Positions 3,385-60,851 of a stretch of DNA of 64,000 nt are shown here, in pieces (the first letter of the stretch is position 1; each line of letters starts with the position of its first letter). The position numbers and the translations under genes are program-made. Below the pieces are notes generated by a model, which searched no databases, was not told where the DNA came from, and saw nothing but the letters and a program-made list of their open reading frames with translations. The DNA comes from a bacterium (GTDB lineage: Bacteria > Patescibacteriota > Minisyncoccia > Phycocordibacterales > VMGT01), in the NCBI GenBank assembly GCA_030697645.1, contig JAUYPI010000018.1, positions 10,457 to 74,456 on the forward strand. Reading direction: 5' to 3'.

Positions 3385-4158
3385 TTAGGCATTGACGACA
3401 TCACTGCGTCCGGAGAAAAGCGAAGCGCGCACATTTGAGACTGTCCGGAGCTGCTCTGGCGTGTTGACGCCGAGGACTTCTTCGGGGAGCGCGGCGGGCA
3501 GGGCGAGAATAGAGCGGCCGCGCCCGGTGAGCACGCGCACGGCGTCAGTGAGATAATACTCGCCGTTTGCGCTGTTCGGCCGGAGGTTTTTGAGCGCAGA
3601 AAAGAGCGCTCGCGCACGATAGCAGTAGGCGCCCGCGTTGATCTCGCGGATCTCTCGCTCCTCCTCAGTCGCGCTTTTCTCTTCTTCAATCCGCACAACG
3701 CGGCCCGAGGCGTTCCGGACGATGCGGCCGTAGCCGGTTGGATTATCGAGGAGGGCGGTAAGAAGTGCTCCTGTCGCGCGTGCCTTTCGGTGCGCGACAA
3801 AAAGGCGCGCGAGGGTCTCGGAGCGGATAAGCGGCGTATCGCCGTAGCGGATGAGGACGTCACCGTCAAATCCTTTGAGGAGGCTCTCGGTAATGGAGAC
3901 CGCATGCCCAGTGCCGCGCTGTTCCTCCTGTCTTATAAACTCAATAGGAAGCTCCGAGTACGCACGCACGGCCCCGGCGACTGCCTCGGCCCGATAGCCG
4001 ACGACGAGAATGACGCGCTGGGGTGCGAGCGGCACAATGGCTTCGAGCACATGCGCGATCAATGGCTTGCCATCGAGTTCGTGGCAGACTTTCGGGATGT
4101 CGCCACCCATACGGGTACCTTTACCCGCCGCAAGGATTATTACTGCAAGGGAGCGCAT
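3385..4158 (-). CDS. sugar-phosphate nucleotidyltransferase (GlmU N-terminal uridyltransferase-domain-like), with no acetyltransferase LbH domain
   Basis: LAAGKGTRM nucleotide-binding motif near the N-terminus. The length fits a single NTP-transferase domain. The start is taken at the Met preceding the motif. Confidence 0.7.
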   Translation of the reverse strand: MRSLAVIILAAGKGTRMGGDIPKVCHELDGKPLIAHVLEAIVPLAPQRVILVVGYRAEAVAGAVRAYSELPIEFIRQEEQRGTGHAVSITESLLKGFDGDVLIRYGDTPLIRSETLARLFVAHRKARATGALLTALLDNPTGYGRIVRNASGRVVRIEEEKSATEEEREIREINAGAYCYRARALFSALKNLRPNSANGEYYLTDAVRVLTGRGRSILALPAALPEEVLGVNTPEQLRTVSNVRASLFSGRSDVVNA

Positions 4159-5300: not shown

Positions 5301-5381
5301 GGGCGAGAGAACGATTGACATATATTAAAGTGCGTGCTACACCTGACATAGGGGTTTTTCGATAGCCACGCCACCTTACAT

Positions 5382-5813
5382 GTGGAGGAATCATCGATGA
5401 CGTTTTATGTTGTCAGACAGTATGGTGGTTCAGAACGTCGCCTCCAGGGAGTTTTGGTCGTTAGAAAATCAGAGTATTTTGTTATGGAGGCTTTGATCTC
5501 TGAGTGTCATGATACGCGCTTAAAACGCGTAAAAGAAGGACCTATCGCTGATCGAGCGCATGCTATCGAATTTGATTTAGGGCCTGAACGCGACTTTATT
5601 CCTCCTGCACTTCAGGAAGTATTACGACGTGCTGTCGACGACGGGTGTATGTTGAAATGGATGGTGGTCGACGAAAATCCTAGATTATTTTTCAGTCGTT
5701 GGGATGGGCGTTACAGTACCGAACGCGCCTTTACCGAATGGGAGGAGGTAGGAAAACAAGATGGAGGGCTAGAGGTCGTTCGAGATTATGCAGAAGAGGT
5801 TTCTCGATCGTAA
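5382..5813 (+). CDS. hypothetical protein, encoded in a lower-GC (~48%) segment
   Basis: Clean ORF followed by a strong terminator. Composition differs from the flanking DNA. No recognisable motif. Confidence 0.5.
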   Translation: MEESSMTFYVVRQYGGSERRLQGVLVVRKSEYFVMEALISECHDTRLKRVKEGPIADRAHAIEFDLGPERDFIPPALQEVLRRAVDDGCMLKWMVVDENPRLFFSRWDGRYSTERAFTEWEEVGKQDGGLEVVRDYAEEVSRS

Positions 5814-5834
5814 ACCGTAGAAAGCCTGCCGTAT

Positions 5835-5877
5835 CCCTGTGCTCGTGTTTGTCTCACGAGCACAGGGCTTATTTTTT
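5835..5877 (+). terminator. rho-independent terminator
   Basis: CCCTGTGCTCGTG-TTTGTC-TCACGAGCACAGGG hairpin followed by a CTTATTTTTT tract. Confidence 0.8.
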
Positions 5878-5948
5878 CATGCTTCAATTTGCTAATCAGC
5901 GAGGATTTTGGTTTGATAAAGCACAATGCATACCTCTCTGGTGTGCGC

Positions 5949-6023
5949 GCGAGCGTAGTTCAGTGGTAGAACGCTGACCTGATAAGTCAGAGGTCGAAGG
6001 TTCGATTCCTTCCGCTCGCACCA
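5949..6023 (+). tRNA. tRNA-Ile (anticodon GAT), CCA encoded
   Basis: Cloverleaf: acceptor GCGAGCG/CGCTCGC, D-arm GTAGTTCAGTGGTAGAAC, anticodon stem-loop CTGAC-CTGATAA-GTCAG, T-arm GAAGGTTCGATTCCTTC, 3' ACCA. Confidence 0.85.
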
Positions 6024-6046
6024 GATAGGAAAAGTCAAAGCATTTC

Positions 6047-6929
6047 GGAAAGGCGGCGGAGCCGCACCGCTCAAAACCGCAAAAGAACCTGGAGAAAAAC
6101 ATCGGCTCGCCTGCCCGCCTCTGGAGGGAACCATATTTTAATTTTGGGGGAAGAAAATTTTTTAATCCTATGAATAAGAAGGTTACTTTTTTTATAGGTT
6201 TATTAGGATATATATTCGCGGGAATAATAGCGCGATTAGTTTTTAGTAAATCTTCTTTTTATCCAGGGTTAGGATTACAGACTGCCGACTACTCAATTGC
6301 CAATTTAGCTTTTCTATCAATTATTCCCGCGATAATTTTTGTATTGTTTTTTTTCATTTTTCATTATCTATTTAAAGATAGAGAAAATATTATTTTAAAG
6401 TCAAGCGGTTTTATTTTAGTATTTTCTTCTATCTCAATTTATATATGGCGTACACTTTTAGTTTTTGGAATAGGTAGTAATGATCTTCCTATCGATCCAA
6501 TAATAGGATTATTGGGATTTGTTGGAACGCTTACGACATTTATTTATCTCTCCTATCATTCTCTCCGTCTTTATAAAAGTAGCAGCCGTTTATGGGTAGC
6601 CGAACTGATTGCATCAATAGTTGTTTTAGTATCAGGGACTATTTTTAGTGCTTCTGAGTTGTCATATGTAGGTCTAGTCTTACTACCTGCGAGCCTCGTA
6701 TTTTTCCTATTTTCTTTTTTCACCCTACTTATTAAATCATGGAGAGAAACACATAAGTCATCATTTTTCTTCTCTATTCTTGGTCTACTCGTCATAATTT
6801 TCTCAACAGGGCTAGTTTTTGTCATTAAAGTACTTTCCGAATGTTGCCACTGATTATTAACAACTTTTAAGATGGGTCGCCGCCAAAGAAAAATTGGAAA
6901 TTGTTATCGGTGCGGCTCCGCCGCCTTTC
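6047..6929. mobile_element. AT-rich inserted segment bounded by perfect 23-bp inverted repeats (GGAAAGGCGGCGGAGCCGCACCG / CGGTGCGGCTCCGCCGCCTTTCC), 24 bp downstream of tRNA-Ile
   Basis: The inverted repeats were read directly at 6047-6069 and 6907-6929. The enclosed DNA is ~30% GC against ~60% flanking. Confidence 0.6.
6170..6853 (+). CDS. hypothetical multi-pass membrane protein (AT-rich, probably foreign)
   Basis: Six or more hydrophobic segments and Ile/Phe/Leu/Lys-rich composition. It lies inside the inverted-repeat-bounded segment. Confidence 0.55.
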   Translation: MNKKVTFFIGLLGYIFAGIIARLVFSKSSFYPGLGLQTADYSIANLAFLSIIPAIIFVLFFFIFHYLFKDRENIILKSSGFILVFSSISIYIWRTLLVFGIGSNDLPIDPIIGLLGFVGTLTTFIYLSYHSLRLYKSSSRLWVAELIASIVVLVSGTIFSASELSYVGLVLLPASLVFFLFSFFTLLIKSWRETHKSSFFFSILGLLVIIFSTGLVFVIKVLSECCH

Positions 6930-7016
6930 CGAATTTTCGCGGGGGGATTTCTTCGCCGCCGCAGGCGGCGAAATGCGTTCGGACTAATTTAAGTAAGAAT
7001 GCTGCATGACGTTGTT

Positions 7017-7598
7017 ATGCTTGCTACGATTTTAAAATCGAAAAAACGCTGTTCGTGGGTTGGAAATGATCTGCCGATGCAGCAATATCACGATGAGGAA
7101 TGGGGCGTGCCTACCTACGATGACCTGAGGGCATTTGAATTTCTTGTACTTGAAAGTGCCCAGGCAGGATTAAGTTGGCGCACAGTTCTCCACAAAAGAG
7201 AAAACTATCGAAAAGCATTTGCAAACTTTGATCCACAAAGAGTTTCTCGTTTTTCGAGTCGTGATGTTGCGCGATTGTTAAAAAACTCTGGCATTATTAG
7301 AAACAATGCAAAAATTAATGCAGCCATTAATAATGCACATCGGTTTGTTGAAGTACAGGAAGAGTTCGACTCCTTTACGGCATATTCATGGGGGTTTGTT
7401 CATAACGAACCAATAAGACACTCTATTCGAGGAATAGCTGATTATCCAACGATAAGCGCTGAATCAGTTGCGTTTGCTGCCGATCTGAAAAATCGCGGAT
7501 TCAAATTTCTCGGCCCGACGATCATGTATGCTCACATGCAAGCCGTCGGCATGGTGAATGATCACATGATAGGATGTTTTCGTCGCACACGCGTATAA
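7017..7598 (+). CDS. tag: DNA-3-methyladenine glycosylase I
   Basis: CSWVGNDLPMQQYHDEEWGVP, LVLESAQAGLSW and C-terminal AHM..CF motifs characteristic of Tag. Confidence 0.85.
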   Translation: MLATILKSKKRCSWVGNDLPMQQYHDEEWGVPTYDDLRAFEFLVLESAQAGLSWRTVLHKRENYRKAFANFDPQRVSRFSSRDVARLLKNSGIIRNNAKINAAINNAHRFVEVQEEFDSFTAYSWGFVHNEPIRHSIRGIADYPTISAESVAFAADLKNRGFKFLGPTIMYAHMQAVGMVNDHMIGCFRRTRV

Positions 7599-7795
7599 TT
7601 CGACTACCATCTTCTTTCGGCGACGGTAGCCGAGTACGATGTCGTTTTATGAAAGGCGAGTATGTACAAGAGAAAGCGCGACCGCGGTCGGCACGGAGGC
7701 CGCCGCGGCTCGAGTGGAAAGTCGCGCGACGCGGCTCACGGCCGGTGCGGAAAGCACGTGCAATAGAGACGAAGTAGCGGCGGCAGTCGTGCACA

Positions 7796-8149
7796 CTACA
7801 TGCCGAGCGCGCGACGAATGCGCGTGTCGACTTCGGCCATATCGGCACTGCTTAGTCTGCCTGGCGCATAGCGTACCAAGCGCGGATCGAGCGTTGCCAG
7901 TTTCGCGCGGACCCACGACGGTGCAAGGAGGTTTGCCTGTCGCCAGTCTTTGAGCGCGTAATCGAACCGCGTGGCATGCCGCATTGAGGTAATCATGGCA
8001 ACCGTGAGATCGTCAGTTGCGTGTGTGAACGCAGACACGCTCACCACCACAGCGGGCCGTGTTTTGGCGGTCGAGAGGTCGCTAAAGGGGAAGGGGATGA
8101 GGACGACATCACCTCTGCGGTACATCGTAGATTTTTTGCCAGTTGTCAT
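7796..8149 (-). CDS. PemK/MazF-family endoribonuclease toxin (type II toxin-antitoxin)
   Basis: RGDVVLIPFPFSDLSTAKTRPAVVVS is the MazF/PemK signature. It overlaps the upstream antitoxin ORF. Confidence 0.8.
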   Translation of the reverse strand: MTTGKKSTMYRRGDVVLIPFPFSDLSTAKTRPAVVVSVSAFTHATDDLTVAMITSMRHATRFDYALKDWRQANLLAPSWVRAKLATLDPRLVRYAPGRLSSADMAEVDTRIRRALGM

Positions 8150-8357
8150 AGAGGGCGTCCTGTGGATTGTCCCAGTCGGCAGCGAAACTCGTCGCGGCGA
8201 GCGAACTCCACGCGGTGTCGTTCGCTACCGGGACTGTGTGTAGGCGATCGTCTGACGTGCGATTGCGGCGGAGCAAGCGCACCACTCGATGAACGAGCCG
8301 TACTTGATCAGAGCGGAGATCGCGGACGTCTATTGTATTGTGCGTGGTCGTTTGCAT
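8109..8357 (-). CDS. MazE-like antitoxin
   Basis: Small ORF directly upstream of and overlapping the MazF-like gene. The C-terminal acidic/aromatic tail (DWDNPQDALYDNW) is typical of MazE/PemI toxin-binding regions. Confidence 0.6.
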   Translation of the reverse strand: MQTTTHNTIDVRDLRSDQVRLVHRVVRLLRRNRTSDDRLHTVPVANDTAWSSLAATSFAADWDNPQDALYDNWQKIYDVPQR

Positions 8358-20243: not shown

Positions 20244-20372
20244 AATTTTCAATTTCTAATTTTCAATCAATTTTCAATTATTCAATTTTCAAACACGAAC
20301 GGCGCGCCACCGTCATTGGATCATTGTAACATTGAAAATTTATTGGAAATTGAAAATTGTAAATTGAAAATT
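20244..20372. repeat. Palindromic heptad-repeat element, A-type, ending 4 nt before the pilB ATG
   Basis: AATTTTCAATTTCTAATTTTCAATCAATTTTCAATTATTCAATTTTCAAACACGAACGGCGCGCCACCGTCATTGGATCATTGTAACATTGAAAATTTATTGGAAATTGAAAATTGTAAATTGAAAATT. Confidence 0.85.
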
Positions 20373-22145: not shown

Positions 22146-22265
22146 AAATTTTCAATTTTCAATTTTGCAATTTTCAATCAATTTTGCAATGACTCAATTT
22201 TCAAACACGAACGACGTCGTCGTCATTGAGACGTTGAAAATTTATTGAAAATTGAAAATTGAGAA
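22146..22265. repeat. Palindromic heptad-repeat element, A-type, between pilB and pilC
   Basis: AAATTTTCAATTTTCAATTTTGCAATTTTCAATCAATTTTGCAATGACTCAATTTTCAAACACGAACGACGTCGTCGTCATTGAGACGTTGAAAATTTATTGAAAATTGAAAATTGAGAATTGGAAATTG. Confidence 0.85.
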
Positions 22266-22283
22266 TTGGAAATTGCGATAGCT

Positions 22284-23539: not shown

Positions 23540-23657
23540 AATTTTCAATTTACAATTTTCAATTTTCATTAAATTTTCAATTCCTCAATTTTCAAACACG
23601 AACGACGCCGCCGGCATTGAATCATTGACACATTGAAAATTGCAAAATTGAAAATTT
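23540..23657. repeat. Palindromic heptad-repeat element, A-type
   Basis: GAATTTTCAATTTACAATTTTCAATTTTCATTAAATTTTCAATTCCTCAATTTTCAAACACGAACGACGCCGCCGGCATTGAATCATTGACACATTGAAAATTGCAAAATTGAAAATTT. Confidence 0.85.
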
Positions 23658-23714
23658 AAGATACGGCGAGCACTTTGGTTTTGGCATGTGATATTAGTGC
23701 GACTACCAGTATTT

Positions 23715-24161: not shown

Positions 24162-24190
24162 CGAAATGGCCAAGGCAGCTGGTCGGGCCG

Positions 24191-24308
24191 AATTTTCAAT
24201 TTACAATTTTCAATCAATTTTCAATTACCCAATTCTCAAACACGACGCCGTCCGTAATTGAGTCATTGAAACATTGAAAATTTATTGAAAATTGAGAATT
24301 GGAAATTT
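24191..24308. repeat. Palindromic heptad-repeat element, A-type
   Basis: AATTTTCAATTTACAATTTTCAATCAATTTTCAATTACCCAATTCTCAAACACGACGCCGTCCGTAATTGAGTCATTGAAACATTGAAAATTTATTGAAAATTGAGAATTGGAAATTT. Confidence 0.85.
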
Positions 24309-24318
24309 AATTGCGGTT

Positions 24319-25365
24319 ATGTTGCTTACTACCAAGCCACCACGGGGCTTCAGCCTCGTTGAGGTCGTCGTCGGTTCCGCCATCATTCTCATCGTGCTCG
24401 GCGGGCTTATTGCCGCGTTCACTCGCTACGCAGCGACGCTTTTCCGCACTACCGATCGGGTACAAGCAACGTATCTTGCCGAGGAGGGGATTGAAGTGGC
24501 GCGTATCCTCCGCGACGCGAGCTGGACCAGCTTTGCCGCGCTCACGCTCGATACGCCGTACCGGCTCGCGCTCTCAAGCGGCGTGTGGGAGGCGACGACA
24601 AGCGAGGCGCTCATTGATGGCGCGTTTGATCGCACGATGACGCTTCAGAGCGTGTATCGGCGGACGAGCGATAGTGATATCGTTGCGTCAACCTCGCTCG
24701 CGAGCAAGGCGATCGACCCCGACGCGCGGTACGTTTTAGTGCGCCTCAGCTGGAGCCCGCTGCCGTTCTCCGAGGCCTCTGCGGAGGCATTTGAGGCAGG
24801 CTCCACAGACGGGGATCTTGGGGGCTTTCCGTCAAATAACGGCGGCAATGGCGACATCGCGCAGGGTTTCACCGTGCCTGCCGGGAGCGACATCGTGGTG
24901 CCGCGCGTGGAGCTTTATCTGCGTCGTGTAACCGCCGCACCATCTGATTTGTACCTTGAAATCCGAAGCGGCTCGACGGTAGGGCCCGTCGTTGCGACGT
25001 CCGCGACGCTTGATGGCGCGTCCCTGCCTGCGACACTGTTGTGGACTTCATTTACTTTTCCGACACGGCCGACGCTCACCGGGGGCGTTCTCTACCACCT
25101 GCGCCTTCGGAGTGATCCCGATTCGACCGTCGCATTTTCCGGTTCGATCGGAACGATTCATTGGGGCTATCTACAGGCTGACCCGAGCCCCTACGGAGGC
25201 GGCATCGCGCGACGATACGTTGGACGTCTTGGGAATCCACTGGACGAAGGTCAGGCGCTCGATCAGTACGACTTTTCGTTTCGTGTCTACAAGGAAGTGC
25301 CGGGCGGTTTTGCTGAGGCAATCGAGTACACGACACACCTTGTGAATTTGTTTGAGACACCGTAG
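24319..25365 (+). CDS. prepilin-like minor pilin (large pseudopilin)
   Basis: PRGFSLVEVVVGSAIILIVLGGLIA prepilin leader with Glu+5. 350 aa, Gly/Ser/Thr-rich C-terminal domain. Confidence 0.75.
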   Translation: MLLTTKPPRGFSLVEVVVGSAIILIVLGGLIAAFTRYAATLFRTTDRVQATYLAEEGIEVARILRDASWTSFAALTLDTPYRLALSSGVWEATTSEALIDGAFDRTMTLQSVYRRTSDSDIVASTSLASKAIDPDARYVLVRLSWSPLPFSEASAEAFEAGSTDGDLGGFPSNNGGNGDIAQGFTVPAGSDIVVPRVELYLRRVTAAPSDLYLEIRSGSTVGPVVATSATLDGASLPATLLWTSFTFPTRPTLTGGVLYHLRLRSDPDSTVAFSGSIGTIHWGYLQADPSPYGGGIARRYVGRLGNPLDEGQALDQYDFSFRVYKEVPGGFAEAIEYTTHLVNLFETP

Positions 25366-25367
25366 GC

Positions 25368-25660
25368 GAAATTTTCAATTTTCAATTTTGCAATTTTCAA
25401 TAAATTTTCAATGAATCAATTTTCAAACACGTAACCACTCACCTTCGTACACAACCGCGTAACAAAGCCGTCATTGCGAGGAGCAAGATCCCTTCGCTTC
25501 GCTCGGGACAGGCTCCGCAATTCAGAGTCAGTACGTAAAACCCCTGGATTGCTTCGCTCCTTTTAGTCGCTCGCAAAGACGGGCGTGAGTGATTACTCAA
25601 ACACGAACGGTGCCGTGGTCATTGAGACATTGAACCATTGAAAATTGCAAATTGAAAATT
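25368..25660. repeat. Palindromic heptad-repeat element, A-type, split by a nested 165-bp insertion
   Basis: The left arm ends ...CAATTTTCAAACACG at 25431 and the repeat resumes TCAAACACGAACGGTGCCGTGGTCATTGAGACATTGAACCATTGAAAATTGCAAATTGAAAATT at 25596, directly abutting the ATG at 25661. Confidence 0.85.
25431..25595. mobile_element. MITE-like insertion with 12-bp terminal inverted repeats (GTAACCACTCAC / GTGAGTGATTAC, one mismatch) and an 8-bp target-site duplication (TCAAACAC)
   Basis: Inverted-repeat ends and duplicated TCAAACAC on both flanks read directly from the sequence. The insertion interrupts an otherwise typical palindromic repeat at its core. Confidence 0.7.
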
Positions 25661-26213: not shown

Positions 26214-26327
26214 AAATTTTTAATTATCAATTTTGCAATTTTCAATCAATTTTCAATTACCCAATTTTCAAACACGACGCCGTCGTCATTGAGTCATTGA
26301 AACATTGAAAATTGTAAATTGAAAATT
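26214..26327. repeat. Palindromic heptad-repeat element, A-type, abutting the ATG at 26328
   Basis: AATTATCAATTTTGCAATTTTCAATCAATTTTCAATTACCCAATTTTCAAACACGACGCCGTCGTCATTGAGTCATTGAAACATTGAAAATTGTAAATTGAAAATT. Confidence 0.85.
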
Positions 26328-27617
26328 ATGACATACCTGCAATCTCAAAACCGCGGCGCCGCTCTCACTCTCGCCGTTCTGATGCTCACCGCCGCCATGA
26401 TTCTCGTCGTCGGCGGCGTGATGTTCCCTGCGCTTCACGCGATCCGCTCCGCGCACGAGTTCACGCGCTCCGAGGACAGTTTTTTTCATGCTGAAGGATT
26501 GCTTGAGGACGTGCTCTATCGGATGCGCGAAGACGTCGACGTGGATACGCTCGAGGTTTTCTCGGAGAGCGGCCGCGTCGCCACCGCAACGGTAACAGCA
26601 GTGGGGACGCTCCAGGAGATCGTCTCACGTGGTGAGCGACTGCGCTCAGTGCGTAAGGTGCGCGCGCTTCTTGATATCGGCAGCGGTGGCGCGGTGTTTA
26701 ACTTCGGCATTCAAGCAGGCGATGGCGGTGTTGATCTCGATAACAACGCGAGCGTTATAGGCAATGTCTATTCAAATGGTCCAATAGTAGGCGAAGGCCT
26801 CAACGACATTACGGGCTCAGCCGTTTCAGCGAGTACAACGGGGCTTATAGACGACATTCATACCGGAGCGGATGCGTTCGCACACATGATCAAAGATTCC
26901 CTCGTTGACGGCGATGCCTACTATCAGATCATAACCGGCACGACTGTCACCGGCACGCCTTTCGATGAGAGTCCGGATCAAGCGACGAGCACGCTCCCCA
27001 TAAGTGACGCGATGGTAGCAGACTGGGAGGCGGACGCTGTCTTGGGCGGCACACTCGTGTGCAATAGCGGATCAGAGCATAAAATTACAAGCGATACGAC
27101 ACTTGGCCCGGTAAAAATTCCCTGCGATCTTGAGATTTCCGGCAATACGACGATCACACTTCGCGGCGTGGTGTGGGTCGAGGGAGATATGAATGTTCAG
27201 AATAATTCTATTATCCGCGTCGATCCTTCTTTGGGCGCGAAGAGCGTGCCAATTATCGCTGACAAGCCGTCGAGTCCTCTCACCAAAGGAAAGGTGATAC
27301 TGCAAAACCACGCCACGTTCCAAGGATCTGGAGTGGGTAACTCATATGTATTAGTCCTCTCGCAGCATGCTTCGAGCGGTTGTGGGGGCACACCGGCGAT
27401 TGATGCCAAAAATTTTGCGACCGGCGACCTCCTCGTCTACGCTGGCCATGGTGAGGTATTGATTGAGGACAACATTAATCTCAAAGAAGTGACCGCAAAC
27501 TGCGTGCACGCAAAGAACAGTGCTCAGGTTGTCTACGAAGGCGGACTTGCAACGCTCCTTTTTGTTACCGGCCCCAGCGGCGGCTATATCATCTCAAGCT
27601 GGCGGGAGGAGGAGTAG
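26328..27617 (+). CDS. large pilus-associated protein with an N-terminal pilin-like TM helix (PilX/PilY-like minor pilin or tip-adhesin candidate)
   Basis: N-terminal GAALTLAVLMLTAAMILVV helix, then a 400-aa Gly/Thr/Asn-rich domain. It is the last gene of the pilin gene series. Confidence 0.55.
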   Translation: MTYLQSQNRGAALTLAVLMLTAAMILVVGGVMFPALHAIRSAHEFTRSEDSFFHAEGLLEDVLYRMREDVDVDTLEVFSESGRVATATVTAVGTLQEIVSRGERLRSVRKVRALLDIGSGGAVFNFGIQAGDGGVDLDNNASVIGNVYSNGPIVGEGLNDITGSAVSASTTGLIDDIHTGADAFAHMIKDSLVDGDAYYQIITGTTVTGTPFDESPDQATSTLPISDAMVADWEADAVLGGTLVCNSGSEHKITSDTTLGPVKIPCDLEISGNTTITLRGVVWVEGDMNVQNNSIIRVDPSLGAKSVPIIADKPSSPLTKGKVILQNHATFQGSGVGNSYVLVLSQHASSGCGGTPAIDAKNFATGDLLVYAGHGEVLIEDNINLKEVTANCVHAKNSAQVVYEGGLATLLFVTGPSGGYIISSWREEE

Positions 27618-27620
27618 GTG

Positions 27621-27660
27621 GGCGAATTTCCAATTTCCAATAACCAATTTCCAAACAATT
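27621..27660. repeat. Heptad-repeat fragment (B-type units) upstream of tpiA
   Basis: GAATTTCCAATTTCCAATAACCAATTTCCAAACAATTTTGC. The ORF track translates it as a spurious N-terminal extension of TpiA. Confidence 0.6.
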
Positions 27661-27695
27661 TTGCTTCAGCGTGCCGCGTGCGCTACACTGGGGCC

Positions 27696-28493: not shown

Positions 28494-28625
28494 AATTTTC
28501 AATGCTCAATTTTCAATTTTCAATCAATTTTCAATTACTCAATTTTCAAACACGACGCAGCCCGTCTTTGAATCATTGGGACATTGAAAATTTATTGGAA
28601 ATTGGAAATTGGAAATTGGAAATTT
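28494..28625. repeat. Palindromic heptad-repeat element, hybrid: A-type left arm and B-type right arm (GGAAATTGGAAATTGGAAATT)
   Basis: GAATTTTCAATGCTCAATTTTCAATTTTCAATCAATTTTCAATTACTCAATTTTCAAACACGACGCAGCCCGTCTTTGAATCATTGGGACATTGAAAATTTATTGGAAATTGGAAATTGGAAATTGGAAATTT. Confidence 0.85.
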
Positions 28626-31508: not shown

Positions 31509-31667
31509 AATTCCAAGCTCCAACCAACAAATTCCACGTAAATTCCAAGCTCCAAAAAACAAGCTCCAAACAAATTCCAATGATTCAAATTCCAATTTCC
31601 AAACACGCACGTTTGAGATTTGGAGTTTGAGATTTGTTTGGAAATTGTTTTTTGGAATTTGGAAATT
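31509..31667. repeat. Palindromic heptad-repeat element, B-type, upstream of smpB
   Basis: AATTCCAAGCTCCAACCAACAAATTCCACGTAAATTCCAAGCTCCAAAAAACAAGCTCCAAACAAATTCCAATGATTCAAATTCCAATTTCCAAACACGCACGTTTGAGATTTGGAGTTTGAGATTTGTTTGGAAATTGTTTTTTGGAATTTGGAAATT. Confidence 0.85.
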
Positions 31668-31693
31668 CATTTTGCTTTTTGTACTACCATACC

Positions 31694-32163: not shown

Positions 32164-32199
32164 CCAGCACCACTTTTACGCTTGTAAAAGTGGTGCTGG
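32164..32199 (+). terminator. Perfect 16-bp hairpin between smpB and the tmRNA 5' end
   Basis: CCAGCACCACTTTTAC-GCTTG-GTAAAAGTGGTGCTGG. Its 3' arm runs directly into the GGGGATG acceptor of ssrA. Confidence 0.5.
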
Positions 32200-32609
32200 G
32201 GATGATTGGTCTTGACAAAAGAATACGCCCGTGAGGTGCGCAGGAGTGCTCCGACATCACTTAAAAAGGCCGGAACCAATACGTGCCAAGAACACTCTTG
32301 CACGAGCAAAGTCTATTCTTTCTCCCTATTTTGGGGTAAGCGACTTTGCTCTCGCATACGCCTAAAGCCGCGTCAGCGGTTTTCACGTCTGCGACGCTTG
32401 TTCTCTTTGACGCCCGATAAGACCGAACGAGTGTAATAAAAATTCGGACTGGAGCGCCGCGTGTCCCGCGCAGCGCTCAAGATTCTAGGGACGGCACGCT
32501 CGGTGAGATTTTGCTTGTTTCTCACTCGCCAGTGTATAAAAACAAGCTACCCTGCGTAGATGCCTCAGAGCAATTCTTTTGCACCCGGGTTCGACTCCCG
32601 GCATCTCCA
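32198..32609 (+). ncRNA. ssrA: tmRNA (transfer-messenger RNA)
   Basis: 5' GGGGATGATTGGTCTTGAC (tRNA-like domain acceptor and D-analogue), 3' GGGTTCGACTCCCGGCATCTCCA (T-arm and acceptor), with a G3.U70 wobble as in tRNA-Ala. It follows smpB. A candidate tag reading frame is GCAAAG...GCCTAA at 32306-32365. CCA is not encoded. Confidence 0.85.
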
Positions 32610-32712
32610 CTCGACTCGCCCCTCCTCGCGGAGGGGCGCGCTCGTAACGCTCGTAAAAAAACGAGGCGTTAAAAACAGCATACGTAAGTTACCCTGTCTT
32701 TTTGATGAACTT
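32605..32712 (+). repeat. Direct repeat copy 1 (about 107 bp): the last few nt of ssrA plus the downstream terminator region
   Basis: CTCCACTCGACTCGCCCCTCCTCGCGGAGGGGCGCGCTCGTAACGCTCGTAAAAAAACGAGGCGTTAAAAACAGCATACGTAAGTTACCCTGTCTTTTTGATGAACTT is duplicated with one SNP at 34183-34289. Confidence 0.85.
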
Positions 32713-57370: not shown

Positions 57371-57510
57371 AATTTCCAAATTCCAAAAAACAAGTTCCAA
57401 ACAAATCACAATACTCAAAATCCAATTTCCAAACACGACGTGCGTGTTTGGGATTTGATGCATTGAAATTTGAAATTTGTTTGGAACTTGTTGGTTGGAG
57501 CTTGGAGTTT
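57371..57510. repeat. Palindromic heptad-repeat element, B-type, upstream of pilM
   Basis: AATTTCCAAATTCCAAAAAACAAGTTCCAAACAAATCACAATACTCAAAATCCAATTTCCAAACACGACGTGCGTGTTTGGGATTTGATGCATTGAAATTTGAAATTTGTTTGGAACTTGTTGGTTGGAGCTTGGAGTTT. Confidence 0.85.
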
Positions 57511-59487: not shown

Positions 59488-59612
59488 AATTTTCAATTTT
59501 GCAATTTTCAATCAATTTTGCAATGACACAATTTTCAAACACGACGTCGTCCGTCATTGAGCATTGAAACATTGAAAATTCATTGAAAATTGCAAAATTG
59601 AAAATTGTAAAT
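59488..59612. repeat. Palindromic heptad-repeat element, A-type, upstream of the pilO-like gene
   Basis: AAATTTTCAATTTTGCAATTTTCAATCAATTTTGCAATGACACAATTTTCAAACACGACGTCGTCCGTCATTGAGCATTGAAACATTGAAAATTCATTGAAAATTGCAAAATTGAAAATTGTAAATT. Confidence 0.85.
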
Positions 59613-60609: not shown

Positions 60610-60668
60610 TATTGATAGCGTGTTTGTGAACTCCCTGCGTACGTGACCTATGGTGCTGCGTACGCTAA

Positions 60669-60845
60669 GGCCCCGTCCATAAATAAGTTCACTCATATCG
60701 TGCTCAATGCGTGCCCTGATGCAGCTTGGCGCGGAATGAGCGAATCCGAAACGTATCGAGATACGAAGAGGATTCGCGACTGAGCACGAGTTGCATAAGG
60801 GTGCGCAGTGAGTGCGAGATGGGGAAGTTATTTATGGACGGGGCC
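60669..60845. mobile_element. MITE-like structured element, copy 2 (same 17-bp terminal inverted repeats, reverse orientation relative to copy 1), 6 nt upstream of tRNA-Arg
   Basis: GGCCCCGTCCATAAATA ... TATTTATGGACGGGGCC. The interior is about 90% identical to the reverse complement of 4270-4413. Confidence 0.75.
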
Positions 60846-60851
60846 TAACCA

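Follow-up and report, generated by a model that had tools for sequence, protein, structure and literature searches.

A very short common core is typical of the sites used by serine integrases, and open reading frames are their usual targets; tRNA genes are unusual ones (PMC9303363). Elements that depend on serine recombinases include A118, phiC31 and Bxb1, SPbeta with SprA, SCCmec with CcrAB, and Tn4451 with TnpX. Like these, complete members of the cassette family described here encode an enzyme with Resolvase, Recombinase and zinc ribbon domains, and the ends of the family's elements have a very short common core, GCAC(CA). Unlike them, the family's units are about 1 kb long, usually hold one gene, mostly lack a recombinase and are stacked in arrays; their target is the 3' end of many tRNA genes, not one ORF; and complete copies hold two pairs of ~100-nt perfect inverted repeats, which serine-integrase elements are not otherwise known to have.

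Integron cassettes are organised in a similar way: small, mostly single-gene, promoterless units with a conserved 3' recombination module and huge cargo diversity, standing in tandem arrays at a fixed entry point and co-oriented with an upstream promoter source. All of these features are present in the family. However, integron IntI is a tyrosine recombinase and the family's enzyme, as read in the two copies inspected in detail, a serine recombinase, with no IntI noticed beside any copy; entry is at tRNA 3' ends, not at attI; and attC is defined by structure, whereas the family's frame is ~330 nt of near-identical sequence, including a conserved 3' module of ~130 nt. Tyrosine-integrase islands and prophages at tRNA genes resemble the family in inserting exactly at the tRNA 3' end, in leaving that end intact, and in that the same tRNA holds different elements in close relatives. 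The family lacks their 20–45-bp duplicate of the tRNA 3' part at the distal end; only ~3–6 nt are common, and the O module that forms this end has just GCA(CC) in common with the tRNA end. Its recombinase is also of the serine type, a departure from the usual rule (PMC9303363). The resemblance to mobile insertion cassettes and MITEs is that of a non-autonomous unit with a passenger gene between inverted repeats, but the family's repeats are not terminal, have no target duplication and have no DDE transposase partner.

The genomes of Patescibacteria (CPR) are very small, and the literature on their mobile elements is scant. No description of the present family was found in the literature, and it is apparently undescribed so far. 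The window analysed here is a stretch of 64 kb of patescibacterial DNA. With a probability of roughly 75%, its positions 6024-7006 are a copy, without recombinase, of a ~1-kb integrative gene cassette whose family is Patescibacteria-wide and whose members lie directly 3' of tRNA genes. Judged from its sequence, the element is most likely a non-autonomous, serine-recombinase-dependent integrative cassette. Its parts are collected in Table 1.

Table 1. Parts of the cassette and the adjoining tRNA gene, in positions of the window
Feature	Position	Strand	Basis and remarks
tRNA-Ile(GAT)	5949..6023	+	ARAGORN; Rfam tRNA, 79 bits; 3' end ...CGCACCA is the left cassette boundary and putative attB half-site
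P' remnant GATAGGAAAAGTCAAAG	6024..6040	+	module map, junction alignment; first 17 nt of the ~100-nt P-ext, remainder deleted here
Left arm stub (inverted module I)	6044..6076	-	compared with the right arm, 26 nt perfect at 6044-6069 and 33 nt at 91%
Leader L with ribosome-binding region ATTTTGGGGGAAGAAAATTTTTTAATCC (6141-6168)	6070..6169	+	alignment to L002, module map
Cargo ORF, 227-aa multi-pass membrane protein	6170..6853	+	~32% G+C, no Pfam family
Trailer T GCCGCCAAAGAAAAATTGGAAATTGTTA	6879..6906	+	module map; homology to codons ~31-40 in the recombinase gene of the family
Right arm, module I CGGTGCGGCTCCGCCGCCTTTCCGAATTTTCGCGGGGGG	6908..6946	+	26 nt at 6908-6933 match the left stub perfectly
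GC hairpin TTCGCCGCC-GCA-GGCGGCGAA	6952..6972	.	perfect 9-bp stem; variable insert between I and O
Right arm, module O AAATGCGTTCGGACTAATTTAAGTAAGAATGCTGCA	6971..7006	+	right cassette end; nhmmer match 6966-7006, end statistics over 232 ends, 19-mer scans

The locus was first singled out by an earlier note, which drew attention to a perfect 23-bp inverted repeat next to the tRNA gene. The left copy, GGAAAGGCGGCGGAGCCGCACCG, stands where it was placed (6047-6069); its reverse complement lies at 6908-6930, one position to the right of the 6907-6929 first given. Both belong to a perfect 26-bp inverted repeat (6044-6069 / 6908-6933), and a longer version of 33 bp at 91% identity (6044-6076 / 6901-6933) leaves 824 nt between the arms. 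When up to three mismatches are allowed, the 23-mer has only these two sites within the 64 kb, and the mean over 100 dinucleotide shuffles was 0.00 matches; the repeat is therefore neither a chance match, as the note had judged, nor a common motif in the window. Neither the 23-mer nor its 14-nt core recurs in the window above chance. A chance or artefactual origin is rejected by the absence of shuffle matches and by an independent assembly (L001) that is 99.9% identical over the locus. The proposed search for a target-site duplication gave a negative result: no direct repeat lies just outside the 26-bp arms, where the left flank reads ...GTCAAAGCAT and the right flank TTTTCGCGGG. The surroundings are largely as first described, including the tRNA-Ile and the hypothetical ORF (5382-5813) upstream of the repeats and, between them, the low-GC gene for a multi-TM protein, which has ~6-7 hydrophobic segments and a measured G+C slightly above the 30% reported. 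The piece GAAAAATTGGAAATTG (6888-6903), previously assigned to a "B-type palindromic unit", belongs to the conserved trailer module of the family and is not a fragment of an AT-rich intergenic repeat.

The frame of the window copy runs from the tRNA CCA end (6023) through a piece of P', a truncated inverted arm, leader, cargo and trailer to a full ~100-nt right arm that ends at ~7006. According to the module map and junction alignment, every family member has a P-ext module of ~100 nt after the tRNA. The left arm has been shortened here by three quarters: its outer ~75 nt, comprising the remainder of I, the GC hairpin and module O, are missing. The leader has a 19-nt GC-rich insertion at 6109-6127 that is absent from L002, a locus with the same cargo, and the GC hairpin insert differs among family members. 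The window junctions read ...CGCACCA/GATAGG on the left (6017-6029) and ...GCTGCA/TGACG on the right (7001-7011), with GCA common to both. The family recombinase has no tblastn match in the 64 kb, the P' motif does not follow any of the window's other tRNAs, and an Rfam E-value scan of 5800-7100 gave the tRNA as its sole match, with no other known RNA family. A simple terminator scan found only a weak site at 6925-6946 in the window and none in the complete copy L118; a terminator role of T-I is a conjecture.

To gauge the extent of the family, the right-arm 19-mer AAATGCGTTCGGACTAATT was scanned for exact matches; it occurs at at least 120 loci in metagenomes and at least 120 in species-representative genomes (at least 240 in total). 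Almost all of the matches listed have Patescibacteria/CPR labels, and more than 20 candidate lineages are named among them; some of those listed, a minority, are machine-labelled TPA bins named "uncultured Gammaproteobacteria". A genome-wide motif, which the note named as a refuting result, is not seen within the window, yet the 23-mer is part of a module repeated over hundreds of Patescibacteria genomes. Across hundreds of loci the conserved frame consists of P-ext, a leader with a ribosome-binding region, cargo, trailer T, arm I, GC hairpin and arm O, and the window's T-I-O module is 92-94% identical to MAG copies from Jorgensen-, Magasanik-, Nomura- and Giovannonibacteria and from WWE3. The commonest tRNA-linked form has a single arm and no left arm, and arrays are one-armed too; two-armed relatives number 45 among the matches listed, with arms of ~100 nt. 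Two arm patterns searched against 2.9 million viral contigs gave no match, and a viral origin was rejected on this ground.

Conservation of the frame is accompanied by great diversity of the cargo. Among the matches listed, ~187 non-recombinase cassettes fall into ~158 sequence clusters, 137 of them singletons, and Pfam matches include ATCase, asparaginase, NUDIX, HNH, cyclodipeptide synthase, methyltransferase and hydrolase. At least eight cargo clusters are found with different tRNAs or flanks, a count that may be inflated because the ~330-nt frame is repeated within a sample and could yield chimeric joins, most loci being short metagenome contigs or MAG scaffolds. The window's cargo protein has a single homologue among 5.8 billion proteins (P0001, 93% identity), encoded on L002. 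There the same cargo lies in a different context, between 76-nt perfect inverted arms at which no target duplication was seen, and the two loci align from 6044 to 6993 at 87%.

The frame always begins directly behind a tRNA ...GCACCA end and stops at ...CTGCAC. Among the matches listed, 33 junctions read tRNA...GCACCA/NNNAGGAAAAGTCAAAG or GCACCA/NNNAGGAAAAGTCAAAGAG... on Arg, Leu, Tyr, Lys, Phe, Val and Ile tRNAs; at 232 listed O ends conservation ceases after ...CTGCAC, and the 35 ends with P' next all read CACCA. The short core GCAC(CA) common to left and right junctions is taken from these two sets of 33 and 232 sequences. Tandem arrays occur in L093, L098, L049, L042, L055, L103 and L230. 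The arrays begin at tRNA genes, and their successive cassettes are joined O-to-P' with the junction sequence ...GGACTAATTCAAGAATACTGCACCAGACAGGAAAAGTCAAAGAGTTTTGG...; O/P' junctions are present inside arrays and composites, and 20 of those listed have no recombinase start nearby. The idea that the O arm mimics a tRNA 3' end was dropped, since by eye its GTTCGG motif is out of register with the T-loop. The P+/O- junction holds a sigma70-like TTGACT-17-TATTCT, kept in both P variants and pointing into arm and cargo. The promoter scan total is within chance range, and a promoter at this junction is no more than a lead.

In complete copies, a large serine recombinase of ~490-545 aa is encoded between tRNA and cargo. 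A second, inverted I/O arm lies between the recombinase module and the leader, and the cargo is flanked by two near-identical ~100-nt arms. The recombinase ORFs of the two copies inspected in detail (L118, 2239-3870; L102, 2742-4394) have Resolvase, Recombinase and Zn_ribbon_recom domains, and the nearest solved structures are those of A118 integrase and SPbeta SprA. Thousands of homologues with 78-99% identity occur in CPR. Databases label the enzyme only "recombinase family protein". Among the matches listed, recombinase homologues adjoin 36 of 242 loci, and the recombinase is on the leader side in 18 of the 27 two-armed elements with enough flank. Two further features mark complete elements: an internal O/P' junction in inverted orientation, and perfect 100-nt inverted repeats, the second such pair, on either side of the recombinase gene. 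A separate recombinase mini-element with a palindromic attP was considered and set aside: excision between inverted P-ext repeats is impossible, and every recombinase unit found has an adjoining O arm. Perfect identities of 27 nt join cargo flanks and recombinase gene; in L118, leader pieces are such copies of recombinase-gene segments. Loss of the recombinase is recurrent, with deletion end points that vary among the window, L005, L049, L095, L240, L188 and L173.

Comparison of the tRNA-Ile neighbourhood in relatives, suggested by the earlier note, showed that synteny is kept (MBL gene, tRNA-Ile, variable occupant, small basic-protein gene) and that the occupants differ. One relative, L243, has the same stub architecture with another cargo; against the window its leader is 75% identical, its T-I-O module 92% and its neighbouring MBL gene 83%, and its stub has decayed. 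L247 reads tRNA-Ile, P-ext, recombinase 3' end, and L245 has a GC-rich large serine recombinase; the occupants in close relatives include a complete recombinase-bearing copy. All five relatives inspected are occupied, with no empty site among them, and neither an excised circle nor any other recombination product was found. The stubs of the window and L243 may go back to one ancient deletion or to two independent ones.

The junction sequences suggest how a cassette could arrive. The recombinase would join the cassette's O/P' junction (attP-like, with GCAC(CA) as its core) to a tRNA gene, whose 3' end would act as attB; joining would rebuild the tRNA end and place the promoterless cargo downstream of the tRNA in the same orientation. 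The assignment of the att sites is read from junction sequences alone, with GCACCA common to all partners and the crossover point not fixed. A simple attP x attB scheme accounts for neither the internal inverted O/P' junction nor the second 100-nt inverted repeat. The window copy would be derived from a two-armed, recombinase-bearing form, in which a deletion from P' position 17 into arm I probably took out the recombinase module together with the outer three quarters of the left arm, and the 26-bp inverted repeat would be what survived. As a deletion leftover, the repeat would have no role in transposition in the window; at most, it might be a small hairpin-forming stub between tRNA and leader. 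A simple old deletion does not explain why the 26-nt stub still matches the right arm perfectly when the stub of L243 has decayed. At present the window cassette might move or be replaced only via a recombinase provided in trans or by homologous exchange over the conserved frame.

Other readings of the repeats fit parts of this evidence. The 23/26-bp repeats could be terminal inverted repeats, and the element a MITE-like non-autonomous transposon (mobile insertion cassette) with a transposase in trans: the repeat has no mismatch, is found nowhere else in the window and lies around a low-GC passenger gene, and the family is clearly mobile. Yet homology to more than 240 related loci runs outward beyond both repeats, to the tRNA boundary at 6023/6024 on the left and to ~7006 on the right, and the repeats are not the element's extreme ends; target-site duplications are absent from them, the left arm is wholly absent from the commonest family form, and a large serine recombinase is the only linked recombination enzyme. 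This makes transposon ends extremely unlikely. What survives of the original proposal is a gene in a small non-autonomous mobile element, a copy without its own recombinase; the transposon mechanism is not supported. Because a serine recombinase gene adjoins a segment bounded by near-identical inverted repeats, the arms might also be recombination sites at which the enzyme flips the cargo (Hin/Gin type, inverton), and the window a locked, decayed copy; a second perfect inverted repeat encloses the recombinase gene, and homogenisation of arms within elements would fit frequent arm-arm recombination. No orientation polymorphism was seen, however: all 18 recombinase-linked two-armed copies have the recombinase on the leader side, and its 3' end faces the tRNA wherever both are visible. 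An invertible segment, which would also leave tRNA junctions, arrays and the one-armed majority unexplained, is very unlikely.

The arms might instead act in RNA, the 5' and 3' copies pairing in the transcript so that the cargo mRNA is looped out, stabilised or processed, close to the "long-range stem" first considered. Near-perfect complementary arms of ~100 nt bracket the mRNA in complete copies, the sigma70-like match points into arm and cargo, and the 3' module of the window has a more stable fold (-56 kcal/mol) than its shuffles (-44 kcal/mol; z = -3.2). Against pairing, the region of the left stub has no folding advantage over shuffles (z = +1.3), the promoter-like match is within chance expectation, and the commonest tRNA-linked form and the arrays have a single arm; mismatches between the two arms of sense transcripts are 24 of G:U type and 25 of A:C type, with no G:U bias, and a role in RNA is unlikely. 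Cargo turnover at this site could also proceed mainly by homologous recombination after DNA uptake, the frame serving as portable homology arms. This fits the common site and frame but unrelated cargo of the window and L243, with the identities given above, as well as frames 92-94% identical in distant lineages and the 27-nt identities between cargo flanks and recombinase gene. It leaves unexplained how cassettes first reached tRNA ends, why junctions on at least seven tRNA isotypes fall precisely at GCACCA, and the tight linkage to a large serine recombinase. As the main process it is rather unlikely; as a secondary route it is compatible with a serine-recombinase-dependent cassette.

The family spreads unrelated genes among ultra-small groundwater bacteria (Patescibacteria/CPR): a single family, with a frame 92-94% identical over many candidate phyla, holds ~150 cargo genes in this sample and is found at no fewer than seven tRNA isotypes. 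For annotation, it accounts for recurrent low-GC single genes beside tRNAs in CPR genomes. We tentatively propose, with slightly more doubt than confidence, that Patescibacteria have an integron-like capture system built on a large serine recombinase, in which ~1-kb cassettes with a near-universal ~330-nt frame are inserted, stacked and exchanged at tRNA 3' ends and expressed from the tRNA promoter or a hybrid P/O promoter. Such a system might be a major route by which accessory genes reach these reduced genomes over phylum-level CPR lineages, and the paired arms and circularly permuted recombinase-gene fragments might be traces of cassette building. If the proposed mechanism is true, the recombinase and its att sites would be a compact natural pair with a tRNA-end target, a candidate tool for genome engineering; the family would be a serine-recombinase analogue of the integron and would make horizontal gene flow in uncultivated symbionts directly accessible.

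The feature beside tRNA-Ile is a decayed, non-autonomous copy of a family of approximately 1-kb gene cassettes that lie directly 3' of tRNA genes in Patescibacteria/CPR. The exact 23-bp inverted match described by the earlier note stands (GGAAAGGCGGCGGAGCCGCACCG at 6047-6069), with its right copy one base further right than described (6908-6930); the perfect repeat is 26 bp long and extends to 33 bp at 91%. As had also been noted, it encloses a low-GC gene (~32% G+C against mostly 50-63% across the window) whose product has several hydrophobic segments; this cargo has no Pfam match. A single homologue of the cargo protein (93% identity) was found among 5.8 billion proteins, on L002, a 2-kb JGI contig that carries no tRNA and has unrelated flanks. 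There it sits inside a perfect 76-nt inverted repeat, and the first bases of the contig, in reverse complement (ATGAAATAC, MKY), are the start of the family recombinase. Because window 6044-6993 aligns to L002 (at 87%), the right arm of the window copy is full length; it reaches ~7006, immediately ahead of the Tag glycosylase frame or overlapping with where that frame begins.

Coordinates of features in the window and in compared loci or contigs (L numbers)
Feature	Position	Remarks
tRNA-Ile(GAT)	5949-6023	encodes CCA
Perfect inverted repeat	6044-6069 / 6908-6933	26 bp
Cargo ORF	6170-6853	227 aa, enclosed by repeats
GC-rich hairpin inserts	6109-6127, 6952-6972
19-mer probe	6971-6989	outer right arm
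143-aa ORF with terminator	5382-5867	perfect 13-bp stem at 5835-5867; between MBL gene and tRNA-Ile
Tag (DNA-3-methyladenine glycosylase I)	6999/7017-7598	42% G+C; between O end and small basic-protein gene
Small basic-protein gene	7642-7777
MazF/PemK toxin, small upstream partner ORF	7796-8357 (-)
tmRNA gene	32198-32610	unusually long tag peptide (AKNTLARAKSILSPYFGVSDFALAYA)
AT-rich units	436-579, 20316-20372, 22147-22274, 23540-23666, 24178-24310, 25360-25420, 26216-26340, 27624-27662, 28498-28625, 31540-31672, 57375-57506, 59488-59606
Recombinase ORF	L118 2239-3870	Resolvase, Recombinase, Zn_ribbon_recom domains
Recombinase ORF	L102 2742-4394	Resolvase, Recombinase, Zn_ribbon_recom domains
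Inverted repeat bracketing recombinase gene	L118 2096-2195 / 3599-3698	perfect, 100 nt
Perfect 27-nt copies	L118 1952-1978 / 3573-3599; 781-807 / 2330-2356
GC-rich serine recombinase	L245 2322-3170 (-)	distantly related; ends over tRNA-Ile 3' end (...HITRWCGW*)
Partial tRNA 3' halves	L229 2586-3010, L193 5270-5350, L246 2385-2525	beside family modules

The probe for the family was the 19-mer AAATGCGTTCGGACTAATT. It had no match in viral contigs; at least 120 loci were found in metagenome contigs, mostly from groundwater, and at least 120 in one-genome-per-species contigs, nearly all of them Patescibacteria/CPR MAGs. The record titles of the listed species-genome loci name more than 20 candidate lineages, with some automatically labelled TPA bins bearing other names. 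Every locus was mapped for five modules as well as for tRNAs and the recombinase; the modules are P-ext (P, ~100 nt), outer arm (O), inner arm (I), leader (L) and trailer (T). The commonest tRNA-linked form is one-armed (tRNA, P-ext, ribosome-binding region, cargo, T, I, O). In arrays (L093, L098, L049, L042, L055, L103 and L230), the O end of a cassette abuts the next P-ext, and 20 such O|P junctions have no recombinase start nearby. In the composite form, the P-ext after the tRNA is followed by the recombinase gene, which is convergent with the tRNA; next come inverted copies of P-ext, O and I, and then L, cargo, T, I, O. In the window, tRNA-Ile is followed by 17 nt of P' (the start of P-ext), which CAT joins to an inverted I comprising only the innermost 26 nt of the left arm; after this stand L, cargo, T, I, the hairpin and O. 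MAGs of distant CPR lineages have T-I-O modules 92-94% identical to that of the window.

The recombinase body is present in 36 of 242 loci, many of which are too short to show one, and is absent from the window. Twenty-seven two-armed elements have 600 nt or more of sequence past the arm on the leader side, and in 18 of them the recombinase lies there. The L118 and L102 proteins begin MKYILYARKST; among solved structures, A118 integrase and SPbeta SprA/YokA are nearest to them. At least 7769 homologues were found at E <= 1e-10; the best 120 clusters show 78-99% identity, and all of those with a source name belong to CPR lineages, labelled only "recombinase family protein". The leader and trailer of the L118 cargo consist of perfect 27-nt copies of pieces of the recombinase gene (its last codons, ribosome-binding region and codons 31-40), which flank the cargo in circularly permuted order.

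Thirty-three tRNA junctions (Arg, Leu, Tyr, Lys, Phe, Val and Ile) read ...GCACCA|NNNAGGAAAAGTCAAAGAGTTTTGG..., with ACACCA in one, and the window junction, GCACCA|GATAGGAAAAGTCAAAG, agrees. The O ends (n=232) are conserved through CTG-C-A-C (191, 175 and 163 of 197); conservation is half lost one base past CTGCAC and absent beyond. Where P' comes next, the end reads CACCA in 35/35. Taken together, O ends and tRNA junctions indicate that the ends of the integrated unit share only GCAC(CA). Serine recombinases have short common cores (PMC9303363), and a core of this kind suits such an enzyme.

Cargo is highly varied. Sequence upstream of 223 T modules fell into 159 clusters; one with 36 members is mostly the recombinase's own 5' region, and the rest are cargo, including 137 singletons. 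A Pfam scan of cargos (n=10) identified xylose-isomerase-like barrel, asparaginase, aspartate carbamoyltransferase, HNH nuclease, cytidylyltransferase-deaminase, alpha/beta hydrolase, NUDIX, cyclodipeptide synthase and methyltransferase; many of the remaining cargos encode small membrane or pilin-like proteins. In at least eight cargo clusters the tRNA or the distal flank differs between copies (e.g. tRNA-Phe vs tRNA-Tyr, tRNA-Arg vs tRNA-Leu), though the repeated frame can mislead short-read assemblers and some contexts may be chimeric. Partial tRNA 3' halves pile up beside modules at three loci, which suggests repeated integration at the same tRNA.

In how it works, the family is closest to a serine-integrase element. 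It resembles integron cassettes in organisation and tyrosine-integrase islands in its tRNA 3' end target, and it fails defining tests of both, as well as of MITE/MICs and invertons. The earlier note had proposed that the repeats could be transposon ends; the MITE/MIC result and the target-site check, which found no direct repeat flanking the arms, speak against this. Nor is the repeat a common motif, with no further copy in the 64-kb window at up to three mismatches and 0 in 100 shuffles. Arms in 45 two-armed elements are ~100 nt (up to 152), with mostly 0-2 mismatches within an element; between elements they differ by whole GC-hairpin insertions. A long-range stem had also been proposed earlier; selection for an RNA stem is not supported, as arm mismatches are balanced (24 G:U-type vs 25 A:C-type) and one-armed copies are the commonest tRNA-linked form. 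Inversion gained no support: recombinase-linked copies keep the leader on the recombinase side, with the recombinase 3' end facing the tRNA. The P+|O- junction reads TTGACT-17-TATTCT, pointing into the cargo (TTGCAA-17-TATTCT in variant P); the promoter scan total was within chance range, and the terminator scan was negative or weak.

End points of recombinase loss vary between loci: 40 nt of P' fused to L (L005), 33 nt of P' fused to an inverted P variant (L049), a gutted recombinase remnant (L095, L240) and P-/P+ mini-palindromes (L188, L173). The window copy would have lost its recombinase module through deletion as in these loci, and from such comparison we infer that its 26-bp repeat is a relic and no active end. 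Short GC-rich hairpin inserts (CGCCGCCGCAGGCGGCG, CCGCCAACTGGCGG, GCCTGCGCCGAGGCTTCGGCGGGCAGGC and others) occur at several positions in the AT-rich frame of many loci (e.g. L010, L022, L026, L047 and L095), and in both arms of two-armed copies.

Relatives were traced via the neighbouring MBL/ComEC-like protein, in line with the earlier suggestion to compare this neighbourhood. They keep the MBL gene, then tRNA-Ile(GAT), then a variable stretch and the small basic-protein gene. L243 (MBL 88% aa) has 16 nt of P', a decayed stub of I, and L; in place of the window cargo it carries two other small membrane ORFs, and its T, I and O abut the small gene. In L245, with the same MBL protein from a different sample, tRNA-Ile is followed on the opposite strand by the C-terminal portion of a GC-rich large serine recombinase; L247 (82% aa) has P-ext and the family recombinase 3' end, a complete-type copy; L246 (80% aa) has a gap in the scaffold, a duplication of the tRNA 3' end, and an unrelated gene. 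These different occupants mark the site as a hot spot, and no empty site was found among the relatives examined. Since the L245 recombinase ends over the orthologous tRNA-Ile 3' end, more than one recombinase lineage uses this target. The Tag gene, absent at L243, may be former cargo or a separate insertion. The 143-aa ORF upstream of the tRNA has no Pfam homologue; in L243 the corresponding interval is a spacer of only 196 nt. Most window tRNA genes (9577-61484) do not encode CCA; tRNA-Ile, tRNA-Leu(gag) and tRNA-Val(tac) do, and the element may have been the source of the tRNA-Ile ACCA.

Elsewhere in the window, dense AT-rich intergenic units (ATTGAAAATTG / AATTTCCAAATT) form a repeat class that is genome-wide in the host and distinct from the cassette frame; often they are inverted pairs, 30-57 nt long, that form hairpins. 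The near-identical assembly GCA_034376905.1 has different genes upstream of 4247; at the break (L001 3253-3438), 186 nt are 89% identical to window 60666-60848 (reverse), a stretch abutting tRNA-Arg(tct). A repeat prone to recombination may account for this, or else an assembly join.

No published description of the cassette family was found in the full-text literature, and the worth of the window copy is that it brings this family to light.
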